Notes: generated by a model not told the origin, from the sequence alone. A DNA stretch of 64,000 bases from an uncultured candidate division Zixibacteria bacterium (GCA_963735035.1 CAVTJJ010000002.1:32001-96000), one strand, 5' to 3'; shown: positions 28,460-39,903, counted from the stretch's first letter. Numbers and translations: made by a program.

Positions 28460-29848
28460 ATGAATACAAACTGGAAACCATCGTTCGACATCAATAGCGA
28501 ATTGCTCTATCTGGCCATCGCCAATGCCATTTCCGATGATATCGATCGCGGCGAACTGGCTATGGGCTTCAAGCTCCCTACCCAGAGAGACCTGGCCGAC
28601 CAGCTTGGCGTGGCGCTTGGGACCGTGACCCGCGCCTACTCCGAGGCCGAACGTCGCGGTCTGATTCGCGGCGATGGCCGGCGCGGTACGTTTGTCGGAG
28701 CACATCAGACCGGACGGTCATTTCTGACTGCCATGTCGGGCCAAGTTCAACCCGGTATCGACCTAAGCAAGAATCACCCGGCGTACGGTCTCGATCCCGA
28801 TTTGGGAGCCGCGTTGCGGACATTGTCGCGAAGCCCACAGGCTCAGGAACTCTTGCAGTATTCACCAGCCGCCGGGATGATGCGTCACCGCGAAGTCGGC
28901 GCTGCCTGGCTACGCTCTTTGGGCGCGCAGTCTACCGCCGATTCGGTGTTCGTGACCACCGGGGCCCAGCACGCACTGTCGGTGATCTTCGCCGCCGAAA
29001 CGCGCCGTGGTGACATTATCGCCGCCGAGCAGTACACTTATCCGGGTGTCCGCGCTTTAGCCGAACAGCTCGATCTTCAGGTTGTAGCGGTCCCCACCGA
29101 CGAGTTCGGCATCCTGCCGGACGCACTCGATTCGATTTGTCGTCAGAAAGCTGTCCGTCTGCTCTACTGCAACCCGTCACTCAACAATCCGACCAACGTG
29201 ATATATCCTCTCACGCGTCGGAAAGAGATTGCAGCTGTCGCGGCTCAGCATGACTTGATGATCATCGAAGACGAGATCATGCGACCCCTGCTGGATGACC
29301 ACCCAGGCTTCATCGCCGACATTTTGCCCGACCAGACCCATCTCGTCCTGTCGGCTTCGAAAGCGGTTGCCGCCGGGCTGCGGGTTGGGTTCATTCAGGC
29401 GCCGCTCAAATCGCACCAGCGTTTGATCGACAGTCTGAACGCTTCCTGCCTGGGAGCTCCGCCCCTCATGACTGAGCTATTTGCCCTTTGGTTCAAGGAC
29501 GGCACCCTGGAAAAGACCATTGAACGCCGTCGTCATGATTCGGCAGCACGCCAGAAAGTGGCTGAGGAGACTCTGGGCGGATTCAGGCTTCACACTCACC
29601 CCTGCAGCTATCATGTGTGGCTGGAACTGCCTGAAAAATGGAGCGGCGAACGTCTGGCCGTGGAAGCGCAGTTGCGTGGCATCGCGATTACCCCGGCTGA
29701 AGTGTTCGCGGTTGACCGAAAATCCCCGCTGGGCGCGGTTAGACTCTCACTGGTCTTGCCTCCCAATTTGGAGATTCTGAGGTCAAGCCTCAAAATAGTG
29801 GCCGATTTACTCCACGGAGCCGCCGGGCATCACATGGCAACCGTGTAA
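28460..29848 (+). CDS. MocR/GabR family PLP-dependent transcriptional regulator
   Basis: GntR wHTH (KLPTQRDLADQLGVALGTVTRAYSEA) fused to an aminotransferase domain (NNPT, EDE, SKAVAAGLRVG); divergent from the aminotransferase gene. Confidence 0.94.
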   Translation: MNTNWKPSFDINSELLYLAIANAISDDIDRGELAMGFKLPTQRDLADQLGVALGTVTRAYSEAERRGLIRGDGRRGTFVGAHQTGRSFLTAMSGQVQPGIDLSKNHPAYGLDPDLGAALRTLSRSPQAQELLQYSPAAGMMRHREVGAAWLRSLGAQSTADSVFVTTGAQHALSVIFAAETRRGDIIAAEQYTYPGVRALAEQLDLQVVAVPTDEFGILPDALDSICRQKAVRLLYCNPSLNNPTNVIYPLTRRKEIAAVAAQHDLMIIEDEIMRPLLDDHPGFIADILPDQTHLVLSASKAVAAGLRVGFIQAPLKSHQRLIDSLNASCLGAPPLMTELFALWFKDGTLEKTIERRRHDSAARQKVAEETLGGFRLHTHPCSYHVWLELPEKWSGERLAVEAQLRGIAITPAEVFAVDRKSPLGAVRLSLVLPPNLEILRSSLKIVADLLHGAAGHHMATV

Positions 29849-30035
29849 CATCCTGACTCATATTCAGTTACCGACGGTAAGTGGATTGATGGAACAGATA
29901 GATTTGTCCTGTGTAAACAAGAAACTGATACCTTACGGAGTTGCGCATTTCGTATAATGCCAATCCCGTGTCGCCATATCCGCATAGATTCGGCGGGAGA
30001 CGACCTAACAGCGATGTGTCCGCGAGATATTGAAT

Positions 30036-31235
30036 ATGAACGAACTGAACGCCAGCAATAGTGACCTGTCCGCTCTCAAGATAGACCGTTCCACACGATC
30101 CGGTCCGCCCGGACGTTGGAAGAGATGGCTCCACCTGCTATGGATTCTCGTGCCGGTGGTAGTCTATTTCGGCTATGACGTGGCCATTAAGAAAGTCACG
30201 CCTTCACTGAAAGTGAAGACCGATCAGGTGAAGTACCTGACCGGCGCCGAAGCGTCCGTTGAACTGGTAGCCACAGGTTATGTAGTCGCTCAAGTCAAAG
30301 CCGATGTTTCTGCCAAAGCCACCGGCCTGCTCAAGCGGCTGACAGTCGAAGAAGGCGACACCGTTCATGCCGGCGAAATTCTTGGCGAGTTGGACAACGA
30401 AGACTTGAAAGCCGCCCTGGATTTGGCAAAAGCTAATTTGAGGCAAGTACAGGCCGATTCGGTAGCCGCCGATTTGAATTTCAAGCGCCAGCAGAGCCTG
30501 GTCGAAAGAGGTTTCGCGTCCGAAGAGGCGCTGGAAAACGCCACCGCTACCTGGCATCGTGCTATCGCAAACATTGAGGCTATGAAAGCCGGCGTAAAGG
30601 CCGCCGAAGTTGCTTACGAAAATAGCTTCATCCGTGCTCCTTTCAGTGGGACGGTCCTGACCAAACAAGCCGATATCGGCGAGATGGTTGCCCCGTTCGC
30701 AGCGGCAACATCCTCTCGTGGAGCGGTTGTCACAATCGCCGACATGACTTCGCTTGAAGTCGAAGCCGACGTCTCGGAATCGAACATCCAGAAAGTGATC
30801 GTGGGCCAGCCTTGCGAGATCGTCCTCGACGCCTATCCGCAGGTCAAATACGACGGCTACGTGAAGAAGATCATTCCTACCGCAGATCGAACCCGAGCCA
30901 CGGTCATGACCAAGATAGGTTTCAATGCTATCGATGGTCGGGTACTGCCGGATATGTCCGCCCGTGTGAATTTCCTCCCATCAAAGAACGCGGCCGCGCC
31001 CGCCGTACAACCGGTGTTGGTTGTCAACAGCGATGCGGTTACGCAGCGACTGGGTCAGTCCGTGGTGTTCAAAGTCGAGCAAGACCTGGCGAGGCAGATT
31101 GTCATAGGGGCGGGACGCAAGCTCGGTGACGTCCGCGAAGTTCTATCCGGTCTCAAGGCCGGGGACAAAGTCATTCTCTCTCCCCCCGGCGGACTTCAGG
31201 ACGGGGATAAAGTCGAAGAGTCACAGACAATTTAG
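30036..31235 (+). CDS. Efflux periplasmic adaptor (MacA-like membrane fusion protein)
   Basis: LVATGYVVAQ, IRAPFSGTV, LEVEADVSESNI. Confidence 0.92.
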   Translation: MNELNASNSDLSALKIDRSTRSGPPGRWKRWLHLLWILVPVVVYFGYDVAIKKVTPSLKVKTDQVKYLTGAEASVELVATGYVVAQVKADVSAKATGLLKRLTVEEGDTVHAGEILGELDNEDLKAALDLAKANLRQVQADSVAADLNFKRQQSLVERGFASEEALENATATWHRAIANIEAMKAGVKAAEVAYENSFIRAPFSGTVLTKQADIGEMVAPFAAATSSRGAVVTIADMTSLEVEADVSESNIQKVIVGQPCEIVLDAYPQVKYDGYVKKIIPTADRTRATVMTKIGFNAIDGRVLPDMSARVNFLPSKNAAAPAVQPVLVVNSDAVTQRLGQSVVFKVEQDLARQIVIGAGRKLGDVREVLSGLKAGDKVILSPPGGLQDGDKVEESQTI

Positions 31236-31250
31236 TTCAGGTTGAGAAAT

Positions 31251-31925
31251 ATGAGTGATGCAATCGTTCAGGTTCGAGAGTTGTTCAAGTCGTACTACCG
31301 TGATTCATTGGAGATTCCGGTTCTACACAATATCAATCTGGAGATTCCCCAGGGTCAGTTCGTAGCGCTCATGGGGCCTTCCGGATCAGGCAAAACGACA
31401 TTGTTGAACCTGATAGCCGGCATTGACAGACCAACCTCCGGCAGTCTCTCCGTAGCCGGTGAGGAAGTTGCAAGCCTGAGTGACGGCAATCTGGCCAAAT
31501 GGCGGTCACGCCACATCGGCTTTATCTTTCAGTTCTATAATTTGCTGCCGGTTCTGACCGCATTCGAAAATGTCGAGCTGCCATTACTACTGACCAGCCT
31601 TTCGCGTAAAGAACGTCGGCAGCACGTGGAATCGGCTCTCGGGGTTGTCGGCTTGTCCGACCGGGTGAAACATTATCCCCGCCAACTCTCGGGTGGTCAG
31701 GAGCAGCGCGTAGCGATTGCCCGCGCTATCGTGTCCGATCCTACCCTCTTGCTGGCCGATGAGCCCACCGGCGACTTGGACAAGAATTCAGCGGAAGAAA
31801 TCATGACCTTGATGACCCGACTGAATAAGGAGTTCAACAAAACCATTGTAATGGTTACCCACGATCCACGGGCCGCAGAAAAGGCGTCCATCATCCGCCA
31901 TCTTGACAAAGGGGAACTTCAATAA
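31251..31925 (+). CDS. ABC transporter ATP-binding protein (MacB/LolD-like)
   Basis: GPSGSGKT, FQFYNL, LSGGQEQRVAIARA, LLADEPTGDLD. Confidence 0.95.
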   Translation: MSDAIVQVRELFKSYYRDSLEIPVLHNINLEIPQGQFVALMGPSGSGKTTLLNLIAGIDRPTSGSLSVAGEEVASLSDGNLAKWRSRHIGFIFQFYNLLPVLTAFENVELPLLLTSLSRKERRQHVESALGVVGLSDRVKHYPRQLSGGQEQRVAIARAIVSDPTLLLADEPTGDLDKNSAEEIMTLMTRLNKEFNKTIVMVTHDPRAAEKASIIRHLDKGELQ

Positions 31926-33082
31926 TGAAGCTTCTCAAGCTTATTTGGAAGAACGCCGGTCGCCACAAGCTACGGACTTTTCTTACCGTTCTTGGGTTAG
32001 GACTCGCCGTGATGGCGTTCGGTTTGATTCGATCTCTCGTCGATGCCTGGTATGCTGGCGCTCGGGCCGCATCCCCCAACCGGCTGGTCACACGGAATGC
32101 GGTCAGCGTGGTTTTTCCCCTGCCTCTGGCCTATCGGGATCAAATTCTCAAAGTGGACGGCATTGAAGACATCACTTATGGCAACTGGTTCGGCGGCATC
32201 TACGTGGATCCCAAGAATTTCTTTCAGCAGATCGGCGTGGAACCGGAGTCATTTTTCAGAATCTGGCCGGATTTCGTAATTTCCCCCGATCAAAAGGAGG
32301 CGTTTAGAAAGGATCGACGTGGCGCTGTCGTCGGCCAGGCTCTCGCGGATCGTTTTAGCTGGAAGGTCGGCGATCAAATAGCTCTAACCGGAACGATCTT
32401 TCCCGGTGACTGGACGTTCGTTATCGACGGCATCTACCACGGCGCCAATCCCGATGTTGACGAGACCACCTTCATATTCAATTTCGCCTGTGTTGACGAA
32501 CGAATGAGACAAGATTCGCCGGGGCGAGCTGGTCAGATCGGGTGGTACACACTCAAGATAAGCGATCCGACACGTGCCGCCGAAATCGGCTCTAAGGTAG
32601 ACGCCCTCTTCGAAAACTCCTGGGCCGAAACCAAGACCGAGACAGAAAAAGAATTCACTTTGAACTTCATCGAAATGAGTAGTGCCATTATAGTCAGCCT
32701 GCGCATAGTCTCTTACCTGATCGTCGGTGTTATATTTCTCGTCCTTGCCAACACGATGGCCATGACGGCGCGCGAGCGAGGCGCCGAGAACGCCTTCATG
32801 CGCACGCTCGGATTCCGAGCTCATCACCTGGTCGGCCTGATCCTGGGCGAATCAACGCTGGTGGCAGTGTTCGGGGGACTGGTCGGGACAGGACTCCTTT
32901 TGCTCGGCGGCAATTTGGTGGCGACAATGGTGAAGGACTACTTCCCGTCGTTCGCGGTCGCCCCCCCGACCTATATCGCCTGTCTTCTGATCGCGCTGGC
33001 CATCGGCGCGGCGGCGGCAATCTTCCCGGCCGTCCGAACCCTTCGGGTGAACATTGTCGACGGACTTCGAGTGGTCGACTAA
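31925..33082 (+). CDS. MacB/FtsX-like ABC permease
   Basis: RHKLRTFLT, large periplasmic loop, NTMAMTARER, C-terminal TM helices. Confidence 0.9.
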   Translation: MKLLKLIWKNAGRHKLRTFLTVLGLGLAVMAFGLIRSLVDAWYAGARAASPNRLVTRNAVSVVFPLPLAYRDQILKVDGIEDITYGNWFGGIYVDPKNFFQQIGVEPESFFRIWPDFVISPDQKEAFRKDRRGAVVGQALADRFSWKVGDQIALTGTIFPGDWTFVIDGIYHGANPDVDETTFIFNFACVDERMRQDSPGRAGQIGWYTLKISDPTRAAEIGSKVDALFENSWAETKTETEKEFTLNFIEMSSAIIVSLRIVSYLIVGVIFLVLANTMAMTARERGAENAFMRTLGFRAHHLVGLILGESTLVAVFGGLVGTGLLLLGGNLVATMVKDYFPSFAVAPPTYIACLLIALAIGAAAAIFPAVRTLRVNIVDGLRVVD

Positions 33083-33101
33083 GCGAAATCGAGGCTTGAA
33101 G

Positions 33102-34262
33102 ATGATTCCTCCGAACTATGCAGTACGAAATATCTCCAAACACAAAGTAACCTCGCTTCTCACGATGGCCGGGCTCAGTCTCGTGGTCTTTGTCTTTGCA
33201 GGGTCTCTGATGTTGTCAAACGGATTGAATGAAACCATGGTGGCAACGGGACAGCCTGACAACGTCTCGTTAATCCGCAAGTCGGCTCAGACGGAAGTCA
33301 TGTCGATCGTGTCGTACGAACAGGCTCAGATAGTCAAGGCGGATCAGGACGTAGCCCGCGACCAGGACGGCAATCCGCTCGTAGCCAGTGAAATATACGT
33401 CCTGATTAGTTTGCCCAAACGTGACACACAGGATGAAGCCAATATCGTTGTACGTGGCGTTGGCCCCACATCCTTCGCGCTTCGCCCGAATGTGAAGTTG
33501 GTCGAGGGTCGAATGTGGACAGATCCCGGCTCGGAAGTCATCGCCGGATTATCGGCTTCGAAACGCTACACCGGCTGTGCCGTGGGTGAAAAGCTGAGAT
33601 TCGGAGCCCGGAATTGGACCGTAGTGGGGATTTTCGAGGCCGGTGGCACAGGCTTTGAATCGGAAATCTGGTGCGATATCAATCAGGCCTCCGATGTCTT
33701 TCGGCGCCCGGTCTATTCATCGTTGTTGGCCCGCCTGACCGACACGACGCGGTTCGAGGCCTTCAAGGCCCGGGTAGAAGCCGACCCGCGCCTGACGCTC
33801 GACGTGAAGCGGGAGAAGGATTACTACGCGGCACAGACGCAGATGTTGGGCACCTTCATCAGTATCACTGGAACGGTCATCAGCATAGTCTTTTCTCTCG
33901 GTGCGATTGTCGGCGCCATGATCACCATGTACGCCGCTGTCGCGAACCGTACCCGGGAAATCGGAACCCTTCGGGCTCTTGGCTTTAACCGTTGGAGTAT
34001 CCTGACCGTCTTTCTCTTCGAATCGCTGTTGATAGCCCTGGCGAGTGGCCTGATTGGGATAGGCGCCGCTTACTTTCTGAATTTCCTGCAAATCTCGACG
34101 ACCAACTGGGGCACCTTCTCCGAAATTGCCTTCAACCTCCAACTTTCGACCGGAATCGTCCTGAAGACCCTGGCGTTTGCCCTGATAATGGGGCTGGTCG
34201 GAGGCTTCCTGCCATCGGTTCGTGCCTCACGGCTCCGCATTGTCGATTCTCTGCGGGGCTGA
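33102..34262 (+). CDS. MacB/FtsX-like ABC permease
   Basis: Start MIPPNY at 33102; ITMYAAVANRTREIGTLRALGF. Confidence 0.9.
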   Translation: MIPPNYAVRNISKHKVTSLLTMAGLSLVVFVFAGSLMLSNGLNETMVATGQPDNVSLIRKSAQTEVMSIVSYEQAQIVKADQDVARDQDGNPLVASEIYVLISLPKRDTQDEANIVVRGVGPTSFALRPNVKLVEGRMWTDPGSEVIAGLSASKRYTGCAVGEKLRFGARNWTVVGIFEAGGTGFESEIWCDINQASDVFRRPVYSSLLARLTDTTRFEAFKARVEADPRLTLDVKREKDYYAAQTQMLGTFISITGTVISIVFSLGAIVGAMITMYAAVANRTREIGTLRALGFNRWSILTVFLFESLLIALASGLIGIGAAYFLNFLQISTTNWGTFSEIAFNLQLSTGIVLKTLAFALIMGLVGGFLPSVRASRLRIVDSLRG

Positions 34263-34342: not shown

Positions 34343-34393
34343 GTCTCATCCATGAGACTTTTCTTGACATTTTGGTCCAAATGGTTGTATAAT
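34343..34393 (+). promoter_or_regulatory. Consensus sigma70 promoter with an upstream palindromic operator candidate
   Basis: TTGACA (34364-34369), 18-nt spacer, TATAAT (34388-34393); inverted repeat GTCTCAT-CC-ATGAGAC at 34343-34358. Confidence 0.75.
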
Positions 34394-34781
34394 CACCAAA
34401 GAGTTGCGGAATTTGCGGTGGTACGACTTCTCGCCTATACACCCCGCATAGATTTACTTAATTCGTTCTGACCGTTTACGGTATCCGTCATCGGGGGTCA
34501 GACAAATGCATCCAGCGGACTGCTTCGCCCAACTCAGAACAAGAAGTGGTTGCTGGATATGTCTGACTTTATCAGAACCTGGTCAAGAGTCTCCTTCACT
34601 GCCGGAACTAATTCCATTGACGGCTTCTGCCTCCAGCAATTACCACCCTTCTGCTTCCTAACAAACAAGACAGATTATCCCGAAGCGCGGGCTAAGACTT
34701 CGCTTCCGCATGATGCGGTGTGCGAGGTATTGGCGCCGCAAACCGCCCAGTGGGCCTCACACCCTTTCACGGAGGTTCGTG

Positions 34782-34886
34782 ATGATTTTCTTGATTGAGC
34801 CGAACTCAATCCGTCCCCCCTTCTGCCACAAGTGCTCCTTGTTCTGCAGCAAGGAAATTGGACTGTACGGCATTGACCCGACCTAA
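34782..34886 (+). CDS. RiPP precursor peptide 1 (34 aa)
   Basis: GGAGG RBS at 34771. MIFLIEPNSIRPPFCHKCSLFCSKEIGLYGIDPT-TAA; paralogous to the next two ORFs. Confidence 0.88.
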   Translation: MIFLIEPNSIRPPFCHKCSLFCSKEIGLYGIDPT

Positions 34887-34934
34887 TCCGGGTAGATCGC
34901 GAATTCAACTTAATTAGAAGAGTTCGCATGACTT

Positions 34935-34963
34935 GTGAGGGAGCGGTCCTGCCGTTCCCTCAC
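34935..34963 (+). promoter_or_regulatory. Stem-loop after precursor 1
   Basis: GTGAGGGAGCGG-TCCTG-CCGTTCCCTCAC (12 bp, one G-U pair), no U-tract. Confidence 0.65.
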
Positions 34964-35092
34964 CCTGATAACTATGAGTAAGTTGCATTGATACTGTACC
35001 ATCTGGGATGGGTCACGACTGAAGAGCAATTTCAGACGTGAGCTTCCCAGCTAATCGGCCACATGGCCCGCACCCTCACATGGAGGTCCGTG

Positions 35093-35188
35093 ATGATCTT
35101 TTTGATTGAGCCGAATTCGGTTAACCCGCCGAACTGCACAACCAAGTGCAGTCCGAAGAGATACCCGTTGTATGGTATCGATGTTTGA
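35093..35188 (+). CDS. RiPP precursor peptide 2 (31 aa)
   Basis: GGAGG RBS at 35082. MIFLIEPNSVNPPNCTTKCSPKRYPLYGIDV-TGA. Confidence 0.88.
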   Translation: MIFLIEPNSVNPPNCTTKCSPKRYPLYGIDV

Positions 35189-35205
35189 TGAGTGCTTTTG
35201 AGTAC

Positions 35206-35232
35206 GCGGGGAACGGCCCAGCCGTTCCCCGC
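35206..35232 (+). promoter_or_regulatory. Stem-loop after precursor 2
   Basis: GCGGGGAACGGC-CCA-GCCGTTCCCCGC, perfect 12-bp stem. Confidence 0.7.
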
Positions 35233-35366
35233 CTCTAGAATCCGAAGACATTTGATTTAGGTAGAAGCAACTCCGGAACGAGTCACGATTGAGCCAATGG
35301 TTTCAAGATTGGCTTGGCCCGGCTAACCGGCCCAAAAGGCCTGAACCAACCATAGGAGGTTTTTCA

Positions 35367-35468
35367 ATGATCTTCTTAATCGAACCGAACACGGTCAATC
35401 CGCCTTGCGTCGTTAAAGTTTGTGCGAGAATTGTACCGCTCTACGGCATCAAGCCGATCGAGATCTGA
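35367..35468 (+). CDS. RiPP precursor peptide 3 (33 aa)
   Basis: AGGAGGT RBS. MIFLIEPNTVNPPCVVKVCARIVPLYGIKPIEI-TGA. Confidence 0.88.
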   Translation: MIFLIEPNTVNPPCVVKVCARIVPLYGIKPIEI

Positions 35469-35509
35469 TCTCGGTAGCTGATTTCTACCGATCTCGGTAG
35501 ATAAGCTGT

Positions 35510-35542
35510 CGTTAGGGAGAACGATCTTCGTTCTCCCTAACG
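35510..35542 (+). promoter_or_regulatory. Stem-loop between precursor 3 and the first radical SAM gene
   Basis: CGTTAGGGAGAACGA-TCT-TCGTTCTCCCTAACG, perfect 15-bp inverted repeat. Confidence 0.75.
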
Positions 35543-35569
35543 CTGAATACAACATTTAGTGCGACCAGT

Positions 35570-36925
35570 ATGCTGACTTTATCTTCATATAATTACTTCG
35601 CCCCCTGGCACGACGGTTATTTCCTTGCGTACAATGCCCGTTCGGGAGCAGTTGCACTGCTCAACGAAGAGAATCAACGAACCTTTCAGGTACTGCTTCA
35701 AAAGATTAGCGACCATCAGACGGAACAACTTAACCCTGAAGAGCAGGAGTTGTTGAAACAACTGCAGTATGGCAAGTTCGTTCACACGGTCGAACCGCCT
35801 GAAATCGACGTATTGAAGTTCGAAAGCCAGCGCGCCAGGTACGACATGACCTCGCTGGGGCTTGTCATCGCCCCCACCATGGCCTGCAACATGGCCTGCA
35901 CGTATTGTTATGAAAGTTCGCGCGGCGGTCGCATGACAGCGGCGACGATGGACTCGGTGGCGCAACTGATAGAAAAGCAAGCCAGGAGCCTGAAGGATTT
36001 GGCCCTGACATGGTATGGCGGCGAACCCCTCCTGGCCATGAACATCATAGAAGATTTGACTTCAAGGATCCTCCGTCTGACGGAACAATACGAAATCAAG
36101 TACACCTCGGCCATTATTACCAACGGCTATCTCCTGGATAAAGAGACCGTCGATCGTTTGCGACAGCTCCACGTGACTGCCGCCCAGGTCACTCTTGACG
36201 GCCCGGCTGCAATTCACAATCGCAAACGGCCCCTTGTGAATGGCCGACCTTCATTTGACACTATCGTTGAGAACTTGAAGTATGCGACCACGAAACTCGG
36301 GATAGGCATCCGAGTCAACGTCGACAAGGAATTCTCACTGGACACAATCGGTCAATTGCTTGATGAACTGGACGGCGCAGGGCTTCGTGATCGTCTGGGC
36401 GTACATTTCGCCCTGATGGAGCCCGCCACGACCGTGTGCTCCAATATCAGTGAAAATTGCTATGATACGGCCGGATTTTCAGCCGTCGAGACCGAATTCT
36501 ATACCCTGCTCCTGGAGCGGGGCTTCCGAATAGAGAAACTCCCGTCACCCATGATGGTGGCCTGCATGGCGCAACTGGTTAATGCCTATGTGGTGGACCC
36601 CGACGGTGACCTGTACCGGTGCTGGAATTACATCGGCGACAAGTCGCACGCCTGCGGCAACATCGCCCAGGAACTTAACCCCGTGCACCCCGAGTTCATG
36701 CGCCTGTTCTCCTTTGATCCCTTTGAAGATAACAAGTGCCGCGAATGTAACGTTTTGCCTCTTTGCCAGGGCGCGTGTCCGTCGCGACGCTTTGACCGTA
36801 ATGTCACAGCCGATCAGCAGTGTGAAAGCTGGCGGTACAACTTGGAGCCGATGCTCGACCTGATCGCCCGGTCGCGCTGGCGGCAAATGCAAAACGCCAA
36901 CCAGGAAGCGAAGAAACCAGTATGA
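35570..36925 (+). CDS. Radical SAM/SPASM peptide maturase (Cys-rich peptide/thioether-forming type) with an N-terminal RRE-like extension
   Basis: IAPTMACNMACTYCYE, WYGGEP, QVTLDG; SPASM motifs CMAQ...DGDLYRCW...GNI...CRECNVLPLCQGACP...C; about 90-aa N-terminal domain (LSSYN...LAYNARSGA...LQYGKFV). Confidence 0.9.
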   Translation: MLTLSSYNYFAPWHDGYFLAYNARSGAVALLNEENQRTFQVLLQKISDHQTEQLNPEEQELLKQLQYGKFVHTVEPPEIDVLKFESQRARYDMTSLGLVIAPTMACNMACTYCYESSRGGRMTAATMDSVAQLIEKQARSLKDLALTWYGGEPLLAMNIIEDLTSRILRLTEQYEIKYTSAIITNGYLLDKETVDRLRQLHVTAAQVTLDGPAAIHNRKRPLVNGRPSFDTIVENLKYATTKLGIGIRVNVDKEFSLDTIGQLLDELDGAGLRDRLGVHFALMEPATTVCSNISENCYDTAGFSAVETEFYTLLLERGFRIEKLPSPMMVACMAQLVNAYVVDPDGDLYRCWNYIGDKSHACGNIAQELNPVHPEFMRLFSFDPFEDNKCRECNVLPLCQGACPSRRFDRNVTADQQCESWRYNLEPMLDLIARSRWRQMQNANQEAKKPV

Positions 36926-38064
36926 GCGATTTCAAATTCTTTCCGCACTACGTAGTCTGGGAGACTACTTTTGCCTGCAACATGCGTTGTGTTCACTGCG
37001 GCACGTCCGCGGGCAAGCAACGCCCGGATGAACTTACCACCAAAGAGTCACTCGCCCTGATCGATGAACTGGCTGATCTGGGCACGGCGCACCTGGTTCT
37101 TTCCGGTGGCGAGCCGCTGCTTCGCAAAGACTGGCGCGAGTTGACCAGGAGATCCAAACAGCGTGGCATCGGCACCTACATGATCACCAATGCCTTCGCC
37201 ATTACCCCCCAGATTGTCGACGACATGCTGGCCGCCGGGATGGACAAGATCGGCATCAGTTTTGACGGCACCGAGAAGACTCATAACTATATCCGCCAGC
37301 GCGATGACAGCTATGCCAAAGTCATCAACGCGTTCAAGTGGTGCAACGAACGTAAACTGAGATTCCAGGCGGTGTCGCAGATCTCCAATATCAACATCGG
37401 CGAAATGGATCAGATGCGCCAGATTCTGATCGACAACGGCGCCGTCGATTGGCGCATCCAGATGACCACGACCACCGGTCGCATGCGCGGCCTGAGCGAC
37501 ATGGTCCTGTCTATTCCCAACTACACAAAGTTGATCGATAAGTGCATCGAATTCCGCAATCTCGACGGCGTGAAGATCGATCCGGGCGAAAACATCGGCT
37601 ACTTCGGCTGTAAGGGTACCGAACTTATCGACGGCGGCATTTATCTCGGCTGCTACGCCGGCACCAGAGTCGCCGGAGTGGAGTCCAACGGCAACATCAA
37701 GGGATGCTTGTCGATGCAGGAAGACTTTGTCGAAGGCAACATCCGCGATTCCTCGTTCACGGAGATTTGGAATCGGCCCGACGCTTTCGCCTACAATCGC
37801 CAGTTCACCCGCGAGACGGCCGGTGGACCGTGCCGTAAGTGCCATTATCTTCCGTTGTGCCGGGGCGGCTGCACCACGACTTCGTTTGCACAAACAGGTG
37901 AACGAGCCAACAACCCGTACTGCATTCATCGCATTGAGCTCGAAAAAGGTATACAGGCGCCGCCGGATGAACCATATATTGCGGAAATACTGGCGCGGTT
38001 CGAACCACCTGAGGCCGTAGTGACCGATGCTACGCCGCGCTCGACGCCTGATATACCGTCATAG
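36922..38064 (+). CDS. Radical SAM/SPASM enzyme resembling PlpX/PcpX tyramine-excising spliceases
   Basis: VWETTFACNMRCVHCGTSAGKQRPDELTT, GGEPLLRKDW, GENIGYFG, GCYAG...GVESNGNIKGCLS, CRKCHYLPLCRGGC...NNPYCIHR match the splicease-family motif pattern as I recall it. ATGA-coupled to the upstream radical SAM gene. Confidence 0.82.
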   Translation: MSDFKFFPHYVVWETTFACNMRCVHCGTSAGKQRPDELTTKESLALIDELADLGTAHLVLSGGEPLLRKDWRELTRRSKQRGIGTYMITNAFAITPQIVDDMLAAGMDKIGISFDGTEKTHNYIRQRDDSYAKVINAFKWCNERKLRFQAVSQISNINIGEMDQMRQILIDNGAVDWRIQMTTTTGRMRGLSDMVLSIPNYTKLIDKCIEFRNLDGVKIDPGENIGYFGCKGTELIDGGIYLGCYAGTRVAGVESNGNIKGCLSMQEDFVEGNIRDSSFTEIWNRPDAFAYNRQFTRETAGGPCRKCHYLPLCRGGCTTTSFAQTGERANNPYCIHRIELEKGIQAPPDEPYIAEILARFEPPEAVVTDATPRSTPDIPS

Positions 38065-38145
38065 CAGACAGACTATAATGCCACTTCGGAACTGTCACGA
38101 CGTCAGACTTCTTTGCACACCCGGTTCCGGGTCAGGTGTATCGGA

Positions 38146-39903
38146 ATGACCAGTCTGATCGCCAAGTTCGGACGATTGTGGGGTTACATTCGTCCGTATC
38201 GTTATCACCAGGCGCTGATGCTCCTGGTGATGGCTATCCTGGCCGTCCTGGTCATAGCCTTGCCGGCGGCGATCCAGTACATGATCGACACCCTGATCCC
38301 GGGGTTGATCGCATCGAGTTCCAACGGGTTCAATTTCCGGCCGCTCGTTCTCTTCTGCCTCTTCCTGGTATCGGTATATCTTGCAGACATATTCTTCGCC
38401 TGGGTGAGGGACTACCTCTCAGGCTACATCGGCGCCCGCATCATTCGCGACCTTCGCTCCCAGCTCTTCGCGCATCTCGAACGCCTGTCGCTGAAGTTCT
38501 TCCAGGAACACCGGGTGGGAGAAGTGATGTCGCGGCTGCTTTCTGATGTCGGCCGTGTGCAGGACTTGTTGTCTTCCACGCTCATGGCCTTGATCACCCA
38601 GGCCCTCATGCTGGCCGCGATCCTCGCATACCTTCTGTCGATCAACTGGATGCTCACTCTGGTCGCTGTGATACCGGTTCCGCTTTCGATCATCTTGACT
38701 AATGCGTACGGCATCCGCTTGAATTTCCTCGCCCGGCTCATTCAGGAGACCCAGGCCGCTCTCTCGGGCCGTCTTCAGGAATCCCTGATGTCGGTCAAGA
38801 CCATCAAGGCGTTCGGCCAGGAAGACCGGGAAAAGAAGAAGTTGGACGACGTCCTCGAGACGCTCACCCACGTGCTGGTCAAGAACAGTTGGATGAATTC
38901 GCTGGCCGTCAACGTGGTCAATTTCTTCAACCAGATCGGCCCGATCGTGGTCCTGGCATGGGGCGTTTATCTGGTAGTGGCGGGCGAGATGAAGATGGGC
39001 CAGTTGATGGGTTTCTACATCCTACTGACTTTCCTTTATTCCCCTATCCAGGGTTTGGCTCAGTCGTTCCTGCAAATCCAGACCGCGATGGCCTCGGTCG
39101 ATCGCGTGTTCGAATACCTGGACATTCCCCCAGCAGTGGTCGAAGACCCAAACCCCGTCACATTGTCGCAATTCAAAGGTGACATTGAGCTCTGTCAGGT
39201 CCGGTTCGTCTACGAAGATTCCCATTTTAGCGTCGATGACTTCTCCTTGTCGATTCATGCCGGTGAAAAAGTTGCGTTCGTGGGGCCTTCAGGCGCAGGC
39301 AAGACCACCATTGCCAACCTGATCCTCAGGTTCTATGACCCCGACCGCGGGCAGATAACTCTGGATGGTGTTGATCTTCGAAGGCTCCCAATCAAATTCC
39401 TTCGCGACCAGATCGCCCTCGTAGATCAGGACCCGCTGTTGTTCAAGGGAAGCATTCGAGAAAACATCGCCTACGGCCGACCTGAGGCGACTCAGGACGA
39501 AGTCGAAGCGGCCGCCCGGGTGGCAAACATCCATGAATTCATCATGTCACTTCCGCGGGGGTACGAGGCTGAAATTGGCGAGCGCGGCGTGACCGTATCG
39601 GGCGGCGAGAAACAGCGCCTCTGCCTGGCACGGGCGATTTTGACTGATCCGAAGATTCTCATTCTGGACGAAGCCACGTCGGCGCTCGACTCGATGTCGG
39701 AACGATTGATTCAGGATTCACTTGCGAAGATTCTAAAGGGCAAGACGGCGATCATTATCGCTCATCGCCTCGCGACGGTCCAGAATGCCGACCGGATCGT
39801 GGCGCTTGAGTCCGGCCGCATAGTAGATCAGGGCACGCACGACGAGCTGACCGCCCGCTGCCCGCTCTATCGTGACCTCGCCGCGAAACAGTTGTTGGTT
39901 TAA
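38146..39903 (+). CDS. ABC exporter (fused TM and ATPase domains, no C39 peptidase domain)
   Basis: Six-TM-type domain, GPSGAGKT, VSGGEKQR, ILDEATSALD. Confidence 0.93.
   Translation: MTSLIAKFGRLWGYIRPYRYHQALMLLVMAILAVLVIALPAAIQYMIDTLIPGLIASSSNGFNFRPLVLFCLFLVSVYLADIFFAWVRDYLSGYIGARIIRDLRSQLFAHLERLSLKFFQEHRVGEVMSRLLSDVGRVQDLLSSTLMALITQALMLAAILAYLLSINWMLTLVAVIPVPLSIILTNAYGIRLNFLARLIQETQAALSGRLQESLMSVKTIKAFGQEDREKKKLDDVLETLTHVLVKNSWMNSLAVNVVNFFNQIGPIVVLAWGVYLVVAGEMKMGQLMGFYILLTFLYSPIQGLAQSFLQIQTAMASVDRVFEYLDIPPAVVEDPNPVTLSQFKGDIELCQVRFVYEDSHFSVDDFSLSIHAGEKVAFVGPSGAGKTTIANLILRFYDPDRGQITLDGVDLRRLPIKFLRDQIALVDQDPLLFKGSIRENIAYGRPEATQDEVEAAARVANIHEFIMSLPRGYEAEIGERGVTVSGGEKQRLCLARAILTDPKILILDEATSALDSMSERLIQDSLAKILKGKTAIIIAHRLATVQNADRIVALESGRIVDQGTHDELTARCPLYRDLAAKQLLV

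Follow-up and report, generated by a model that had tools for sequence, protein, structure and literature searches.

What do three short, cysteine-bearing open reading frames (ORFs) encode when two radical S-adenosylmethionine (SAM) enzymes and an exporter stand directly behind them, and what would these enzymes do to the peptides? The question is raised by a 64,000-nt stretch of DNA from an uncultured candidate division Zixibacteria bacterium (GCA_963735035.1 CAVTJJ010000002.1:32001-96000), called the window here, within which all positions are counted. Our analysis showed that the locus is a compact, operon-like gene set on the + strand (34364-39903), in which three precursor ORFs are followed by two radical SAM genes, rSAM1 and rSAM2, and by the gene of an ATP-binding cassette (ABC) exporter. 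It is very likely an operon for peptides made on the ribosome and modified after translation (RiPPs) that has the three short peptides as its substrates. We propose that the product leaves the cell as a RiPP that bears thioether cross-links and is modified at its Tyr-Gly site, probably by the excision of tyramine, and we give this reading as a whole a probability of about 0.45. A preliminary description of the locus had listed three MIFLIEPN...LYGI ORFs with GGAGG ribosome-binding sites and two or three Cys each, two coupled radical SAM genes and an ABC exporter, and every detail that we checked was present, as follows:

34782..34886, + strand: precursor 1, 34 amino acids (aa), with a MIFLIEPN start, three Cys and G-L-Y-G-I near the C-terminus; GGAGG lies 5' of it.
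35093..35188, + strand: precursor 2, 31 aa, with two Cys as Cx3C and then P-L-Y-G-I.
35367..35468, + strand: precursor 3, 33 aa, with two Cys and then P-L-Y-G-I; the partner in the complex model described below.
35570..36925, + strand: rSAM1, 451 aa, with an N-terminal domain resembling a RiPP recognition element (RRE), a radical SAM core and a SPASM domain.
36922..38064, + strand: rSAM2, 380 aa, with a radical SAM core and a full SPASM domain, and no RRE.
38113..39903, + strand: ABC exporter, 596 aa when read as a TTG-start ORF; a half-transporter.

All three peptides share the MIFLIEPN start and have L-Y-G-I close to the C-terminus, and a GGAGG or AGGAGG stands 6-8 nt 5' of the ATG of each; the end of rSAM1 and the start of rSAM2 overlap by 4 nt. 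Neither Pfam nor NCBIfam recognises the peptides. Related loci were picked by their rSAM2 homologue, which gave 60 loci from 58 genomes; left out were short or partial contigs (G111, G163, G171, G110, G136), a 31%-identity match in G084 and a paralogue in the window's own genome. rSAM1 is directly upstream of rSAM2 in all 60, and in 58 of them precursors of the same design, one to four divergent copies per locus, stand upstream of rSAM1, which bears out the expectation that the short ORFs would be conserved beside homologous enzyme pairs. Each check suggested in the preliminary description that we ran turned out in favour of it.

Alignment of the 99 distinct precursor sequences from the window and the related loci (28-48 aa long) revealed peptides with very strongly conserved ends and a variable middle. 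The first seven positions form an N-terminal handle, M-x-(Y/F)-L-(I/V)-(D/E)-P, in which P7 is invariant and L4 is found in 98 of the 99. Towards the other end lies a near-invariant tail motif, P-(L/M/C)-Y-G-(I/V)-(P/D), with Pro two residues before the Tyr in 96 peptides, I or V after the Gly in 94, and L (74), M (13) or C (12) as the x of x-Y-G; a further 3-12 residues follow Y-G, and the Tyr is internal in all 99. The middle contains two (32 peptides), three (45) or four (17) Cys, less often one (2) or five (3), and 142 of the 197 successive Cys pairs are spaced by three residues as Cx3C repeats. The sampled family thus holds about 100 distinct natural cores. At one locus two precursors show an inverted layout, in which the usual leader and P-L-Y-G are present and most of the Cys come after YG (L043:3600-3728 and L043:4122-4250, + strand).

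The filter that collected precursors from the loci required YG. A separate search with the leader motif only is not circular, because YG was not demanded: it found 109 ORFs in the 740,614 bp of the window and the 60 related loci (six frames), and 107 of these have YG. The two that do not are a truncated copy at L048 and an ORF in L082; at the former (L048:5456-5518, + strand) the precursor is split by a frameshift and the tail can be read in another frame. Searched for by itself, the tail motif P[LMC]YG[IVL] occurs 111 times: 99 times within called precursors, 11 times within additional precursor-like ORFs whose leaders deviate, and once in what is apparently a chance match. Leader and YG co-occur far beyond chance.

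Which enzyme would act on this site? The preliminary description had called the second radical SAM enzyme splicease-like, and its family affinities are in agreement with this. The best NCBIfam models of rSAM2 are TIGR04103 (nif11-class peptide radical SAM maturase 3; 229.1 bits, or 228.2 in the genome search), which we take to stand for the PlpX/PcpX type of splicease, and TIGR03913 (228.8 bits), ahead of TIGR04133 and NirJ2 (185 bits each), AhbD (176), MftC (148), a StsB-type sactisynthase model (121) and PqqE (105). No curated cut-off is reached, and we therefore say that rSAM2 would work like a splicease, not that it belongs to the family. Its SPASM domain is well supported (PF13186, 39.8 against a cut-off of 21.5), and the Cys residues of the CxxxCxxC motif (C19, C23, C26) are invariant, as are C244, C262, C304, C307, C313, C317 and C334, with C230 nearly so, which agrees with a SPASM motif of seven or eight Cys. 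The protein starts directly at the CxxxCxxC core and therefore has no recognition domain.

A search of 1.84 billion 50%-identity representatives showed that the Zixibacteria rSAM2 family is covered by one representative (537 bits) and a fragment, after which the score drops to 321 bits; the best full-length relatives outside the family are at most 42% identical. Among the 59 next-nearest representatives that were scanned (E <= 1e-75), 27 match TIGR04103 and/or TIGR03913 with 256-318 bits, and AhbD/NirJ of the heme pathway is the best match of none. Judged by sequence relationships, rSAM2 appears as a discrete family at the edge of a large splicease-like group, outside both curated families. 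Of its relatives of similar score, TIGR03913 comprises the GDL-motif maturases and TIGR04133 radical SAM/SPASM proteins found with a lipoprotein; TIGR03913 systems have GDL-motif precursors, whereas the GDL motif is missing from the Zixibacteria precursor consensus. A sequence search of the PDB yielded no splicease structure; among solved structures, PqqE (6c8v, E 2e-16) is nearest to rSAM2. The ESM Atlas returned generic radical SAM/SPASM clusters only, and TIGR04103 has no member above cut-off in any of 14 control genomes. The window's genome also encodes a paralogue of rSAM2 with about 39-40% identity (G000:C3:943646-944752, minus strand; L056 7668-8867; P0124). It stands without rSAM1 or precursors, beside a gene for a fibronectin-III-like lipoprotein, and its nearest model is TIGR04133 (193 bits, cut-off 425).

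The reading of the site as a splice site comes from the peptides: we favour it because splicease sites have the pattern seen here, in which x varies (L, M, C) and the Y-G next to it is fixed, and this x-Y-G site is encoded beside a radical SAM/SPASM enzyme, as in spliceotide systems. The native x of type I splicease systems is Met or Leu (PMC9811515), and RasA is spliced at LYG with a loss of 135.06 Da (PMC11626197).

That the second enzyme would target LYG, as had been suggested for this locus, is also supported by structural modelling. A complex of rSAM2 and precursor 3 was modelled from family alignments together with SAM and three 4Fe-4S clusters, alongside three controls. It obtained interface confidence scores (ipSAE) of 0.88, 0.88 and 0.83, compared with 0.02 for the best of the three controls, with a partner pLDDT (predicted local distance difference test) of at least 69 and at least 80% of contacts shared between runs. 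The mark set for the tool is reached by 116 of 157 solved complexes and by 2 of 215 mismatched pairs, counts that hold only roughly here because our own alignments and riding ligands were used. In the model the handle (precursor residues 1-7) contacts rSAM2 residues 242-248, 292-297 and 310-314 in the SPASM region, and precursor residues 20-31, including Y26, G27 and I28, lie over the top of the barrel (rSAM2 residues 12, 56-61, 84-88, 108-111, 147-151 and 176-180). These barrel contacts adjoin G62-G63-E64, presumably the GGE motif that binds SAM. For the Cys-rich stretch of residues 13-19 the model gives no confident contact. Contacts at both ends of the peptide, if the model is right, would explain why the ends are conserved and the middle varies freely. 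The arrangement mirrors that of AlphaFold models of known spliceases, which put XYG in the active centre (PMC11414181). Taken together, site pattern and model make it likely that rSAM2 acts at the Y-G site, and we regard tyramine excision as close to an even bet for the reaction carried out there.

The same contacts bear on an alternative in which P-x-Y-G-(I/V)-P is a docking or cleavage (follower) motif only, rSAM1 and rSAM2 both act on the Cys-rich middle, and the tail is trimmed later. Conserved ends around a variable middle are indeed expected of docking elements, thuricin CD and ruminococcin C are known cases in which two radical SAM enzymes form thioethers on a single product, and the StsB-type sactisynthase model does give its 121 bits on rSAM2. 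We nevertheless consider this explanation improbable, since the model puts Y-G-I over the barrel and leaves the Cys stretch out of contact, the best models of rSAM2 are not thioether synthases, and no conserved protease is seen in the loci.

The cysteines would be the business of rSAM1, which the preliminary description had taken for a thioether-type enzyme. Its best NCBIfam models, again below their cut-offs, are TIGR04334 (Clo7bot peptide maturase, 343.9 bits) and TIGR04463 (301.1 bits), followed by FlmE/OhkG, CefB ('Cys-every-fifth') and the geopeptide maturase, so that every top model describes maturases that act on Cys-rich peptides. With 61.6 bits, rSAM1 is above the cut-off of 27 of the SPASM model TIGR04085, and C106, C110, C113 and nine C-terminal Cys are invariant. 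An AlphaFold2 model of the protein (mean pLDDT 85.3) has strands and helices in residues 1-90, ahead of the core, and its best fold match in the PDB is CteB (5why/5wgg, E 1e-19, 458-464 alignment columns, the N-terminal domain included), which is also the best solved relative by sequence. rSAM1 thus has the architecture of CteB: a recognition domain at the N-terminus, then a core with CxxxCxxC, and a SPASM domain that contains two sets of Cys for auxiliary clusters. It shares this RRE-like/radical SAM/SPASM organisation with the ranthipeptide-type synthases (CteB/SCIFF, PapB, CrpC/TIGR04463 and the uncharacterised Clo7bot family TIGR04334), whose substrates are Cys-rich and regularly spaced, as the Zixibacteria precursors are. 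CrpC, a member of TIGR04463, installs ranthionine cross-links (PMC13692751). We lean towards the view that rSAM1 makes Cys thioethers, and because of these relatives the cross-links would more likely be of the ranthionine than of the sactionine type. Unlike ranthipeptide systems, the Zixibacteria loci have an additional conserved P-x-Y-G site on the precursor and a second SPASM enzyme, and a B12-dependent radical SAM enzyme joins them in about half of the related loci.

The two enzyme types are also found joined in one protein. P0168 (938 aa), from another lineage, is a natural fusion of an N-terminal splicease-like domain (TIGR04103, 250 bits) to a C-terminal Clo7bot-like domain (TIGR04334, 422 bits), and P0390 (941 aa) is the same fusion, 76% identical to P0168; in both, a linker of about 150 residues connects the domains. 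The fusion was not found in 285 Zixibacteria genomes or in two metagenome scans. The fusion provides independent support for the idea that both types of enzyme work together.

How widely is the system distributed, and does the distribution fit a secreted product? Of 201 genomes sampled from the phylum, 64 have a homologue of rSAM2 (E <= 1e-60); among high-quality genomes the count is 60 of 180, with 24 of 72 in the bacterium's own family and none in twelve other families. This patchiness marks the system as an accessory trait and not a housekeeping one, and together with the constant pairing with precursors it speaks against a housekeeping role for rSAM2 in heme d1 or heme b synthesis, an idea that we set aside. 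The named homologues of both enzymes come from metagenome-assembled genomes of Zixibacteria/GN15, apart from a single one, on a 5.8-kb contig, that is labelled Deferrimicrobium, and a scan of genome contigs found just two close loci, both from Zixibacteria; as far as named records show, the family appears confined to this phylum. The enzyme pair can occur in several copies: G155 has three copies, of which two form a tandem, each with its own precursor (L052 G155:C27, L086 G155:C31), and G191 has two (L053, L085). An exporter homologue is found in 53 of the 60 related loci, several of the missing cases lying at contig ends. In the window the exporter has the Pfam domains ABC_membrane (residues 38-311) and ABC_tran (375-523), and no C39 peptidase domain was found in it with Pfam.

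These data are relevant to the notion that the peptides give rise to an intracellular redox cofactor or signal, in the manner of pyrroloquinoline quinone (PQQ) or mycofactocin, and not to a secreted bioactive compound. The very strong conservation of the peptide ends and the position of PqqE as closest solved relative of rSAM2 are compatible with such a role. The presence of one to four divergent precursors per locus, the patchy distribution (64 of 201 genomes) and a dedicated ABC exporter in 53 of 60 loci are difficult to reconcile with it, and no genes for cofactor tailoring or for a cofactor-dependent dehydrogenase are conserved in the related loci. We thus judge a cofactor role highly improbable.

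A number of observations weigh against the proposed reading, that of a secreted, thioether-bearing RiPP with a spliced Tyr-Gly site. Neither enzyme attains the curated cut-offs of its best models, which places both outside these families: rSAM2 has 229.1 against 725 bits for TIGR04103 and 228.8 against 591.75 for TIGR03913, and rSAM1 has 344 against 600 for TIGR04334 and 301 against 525 for TIGR04463. The splicease models lead TIGR04133 and NirJ2 on rSAM2 by just about 45 bits. Among the 59 nearest representatives, 31 have no family at E <= 1e-75 and none is at a splicease cut-off, and because these nearest representatives are below cut-off a tree has no experimentally verified splicease as anchor. 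The handle is seven residues long, and the long leader or Y-protein helix of spliceotides was not found. The scores of the complex are the model's own confidence and relate to binding mode only, saying nothing on the chemistry; in addition, the modelled interface on rSAM2 is not significantly enriched in conserved residues (26 of 59, against 20.7 expected, p = 0.08), and interface conservation was accordingly dropped as support for the model. On the side of the peptides, one intact ORF with the leader and four Cys has no YG (L082:6599-6703, minus strand), the only intact exception among the 109, and two of the related loci have no intact precursor, the one at L048 being frameshifted and none being found at L053. 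Finally, no protease for the removal of the handle is conserved in the 60 related loci.

Some of these points would suit a different radical reaction of rSAM2 at the invariant Tyr, such as a Tyr-Cys or other cross-link, a three-residue cyclophane formed on Y-G-(I/V) or an oxidation, none of which would give a ketoamide; the product would instead be a peptide with multiple cross-links. rSAM2 stays under the splicease cut-offs, and at 50% identity it clusters by itself (537 bits for the representative, with a drop to 321), SPASM enzymes of nearby score carry out other Tyr chemistry (MftC at 148 and PqqE at 105 bits), and the complex model fixes the site rather than the reaction. Y-G-(I/V) also fits the aromatic-x-x layout of three-residue cyclophanes. 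Yet the cyclophane families YhhB, AmcB, GrrM and FxsB are not among the 25 best models of rSAM2. MftC acts on a C-terminal Tyr, in contrast to the Tyr of the Zixibacteria peptides, which is internal in 99 of 99, and the combination of a variable x with an invariant Y-G is the known signature of a splice site. For these reasons we see another Tyr reaction as rather unlikely, although it is a stronger contender than either a docking motif or a cofactor role, and retain tyramine excision as the preferred reaction.

On this preferred reading we infer the following order of events. rSAM1 would dock on the handle through its own recognition domain and join Cys sulfurs to carbons of other residues. 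rSAM2, which has no recognition domain, would then bind the same handle on its SPASM region and lead Y-G-(I/V) across the barrel of its radical SAM domain, where it would modify the P-x-Y-G site, most likely by excising tyramine and leaving a ketoamide. The ABC transporter would export the modified product, which may act as a protease inhibitor: spliced peptides are inactive without their ketoamide, a proven pharmacophore for protease inhibition (PMC11626197).

How does this system compare with known spliceotides? These comprise the products of PlpX/PcpX (type I, with a Y protein) and of RhaX/RcsX/RasX (binary, type II), whose enzymes are of the radical SAM/SPASM type modelled by TIGR04103 and TIGR03913, the top models of rSAM2 too. 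Spliceotide substrates have an invariant Y-G after a variable residue, as do the Zixibacteria precursors (L, M or C). As in the binary systems, no Y protein was found at the Zixibacteria loci, nor was a Y-like gene seen among the conserved ORFs of at least 100 aa, and Cys residues flank the splice site in RasA and RcsA and do likewise in the Zixibacteria precursors. A published review relates that the survey by which spliceases were sorted into types (Scott et al., 2022) detected YG-rich neighbourhoods in 189 genera and confirmed 27 enzyme-substrate pairs (PMC10849128). Where spliceotides have a long leader of the Nif11/NHLP or helical kind, the Zixibacteria peptides have a seven-residue handle; in the known binary systems the splicease works with a leader that is long and helical (PMC11414181). 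Their rSAM2 is always paired, and translationally coupled, with a second SPASM enzyme of the Cys-rich-peptide type, and the Zixibacteria scores are far below the cut-offs, the family being restricted to Zixibacteria in named records and its chemistry a prediction. A literature search returned no description of this family, of a splicease paired with thioether formation, or of Zixibacteria RiPPs; the supplements of Scott et al. (2022), which were outside this search, may list the family. A term search of the catalytic-proximity paper (PMC10288494) gave no matches. Splicease-like and ranthipeptide-like parts thus stand here in a new and conserved combination with a minimal leader, apparently undescribed. 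It could, although this is less likely than not, be the first natural class of RiPPs in which one peptide of 30-45 residues receives two unrelated radical SAM chemistries, thioether cross-links and a splicease-made ketoamide, steered by a seven-residue handle that the splicease-like enzyme would read directly through its SPASM domain.

Beyond the enzymes and peptides, the locus has several further features, of which the stable hairpins after the precursor genes also count in favour of the proposed reading:

34343-34358: terminator-like hairpin, directly before the promoter-like site and 3' of the FtsX gene.
34364..34393, + strand: promoter-like site TTGACA-18-TATAAT, about 390 nt 5' of precursor 1; 12 of 12 consensus positions agree, as a consensus match only.
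34935..34963, + strand: GC-rich hairpin of 13 bp after precursor 1; region folding z = -4.4.
35206..35232, + strand: GC-rich hairpin of 12 bp after precursor 2; region folding z = -5.1.
35512..35540, + strand: GC-rich hairpin of 13 bp between precursor 3 and rSAM1; region folding z = -6.4.

None of 200 shuffles folds as well as any of the three hairpin regions after the precursors. Small stem-loops at 34767-34782 and 35079-35092 (+ strand) enclose the GGAGG of precursor 1 and that of precursor 2, with their ends at the ATG or just before it, and could be a form of translational control; precursor 3 has no such stem-loop. An Rfam search gave one sub-threshold match only, and a search of sequencing runs listed no RNA run and one DNA run with a 0.06 share of words. 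Directly upstream lies a MacAB-like efflux operon (30030-34262, + strand) that encodes an HlyD-type adaptor, an ABC ATPase and two FtsX/MacB permeases. We set these genes aside as a part of the cluster because they are missing from the first 20 related loci and because the terminator-like hairpin and promoter-like site lie in between. Upstream of the efflux operon is the gene of a MocR-like regulator, a fusion of a GntR-type DNA-binding domain to an aminotransferase-like domain (28460-29848, + strand).

The related loci show two further genes that the window locus does not have. In about half of them a third enzyme is encoded between rSAM2 and the exporter; it is about 455 aa long, combines a B12-binding with a Radical_SAM domain and is probably a methyltransferase. 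Of the 52 loci in which the distance from rSAM2 to the exporter could be measured, 29 have more than 1300 nt there, 33 of all 60 contain the ORF family, and Pfam confirmed the domains in all three cases tested (examples: L040, L041, L047, L062, L098; L041:5550-6914, minus strand). We saw no obvious link between the presence of this enzyme and the precursor sequence. The other gene, in 10 of the 60 loci, is that of a multi-PAS hybrid histidine kinase with a receiver domain, which may be a regulator; in the one locus inspected it is just upstream of the precursors (L037:10395-14504, minus strand).

The proposed chemistry, if true, would naturally couple a ketoamide warhead to thioether cross-links and so widen the known chemical space of RiPPs, with compact, cross-linked protease inhibitors coming from an uncultured phylum. 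The handle and P-x-Y-G-(I/V)-P would then be the smallest known pair of tags for installing beta-amino-acid ketoamides, providing a short splicing handle for protein engineering. If the reaction at the Tyr is not splicing, the invariant P-x-Y-G marks an unknown radical SAM reaction. With one peptide of 33 aa and two enzymes, the system is small and directly testable in E. coli, and it would give a first view of the secondary metabolism of Zixibacteria.

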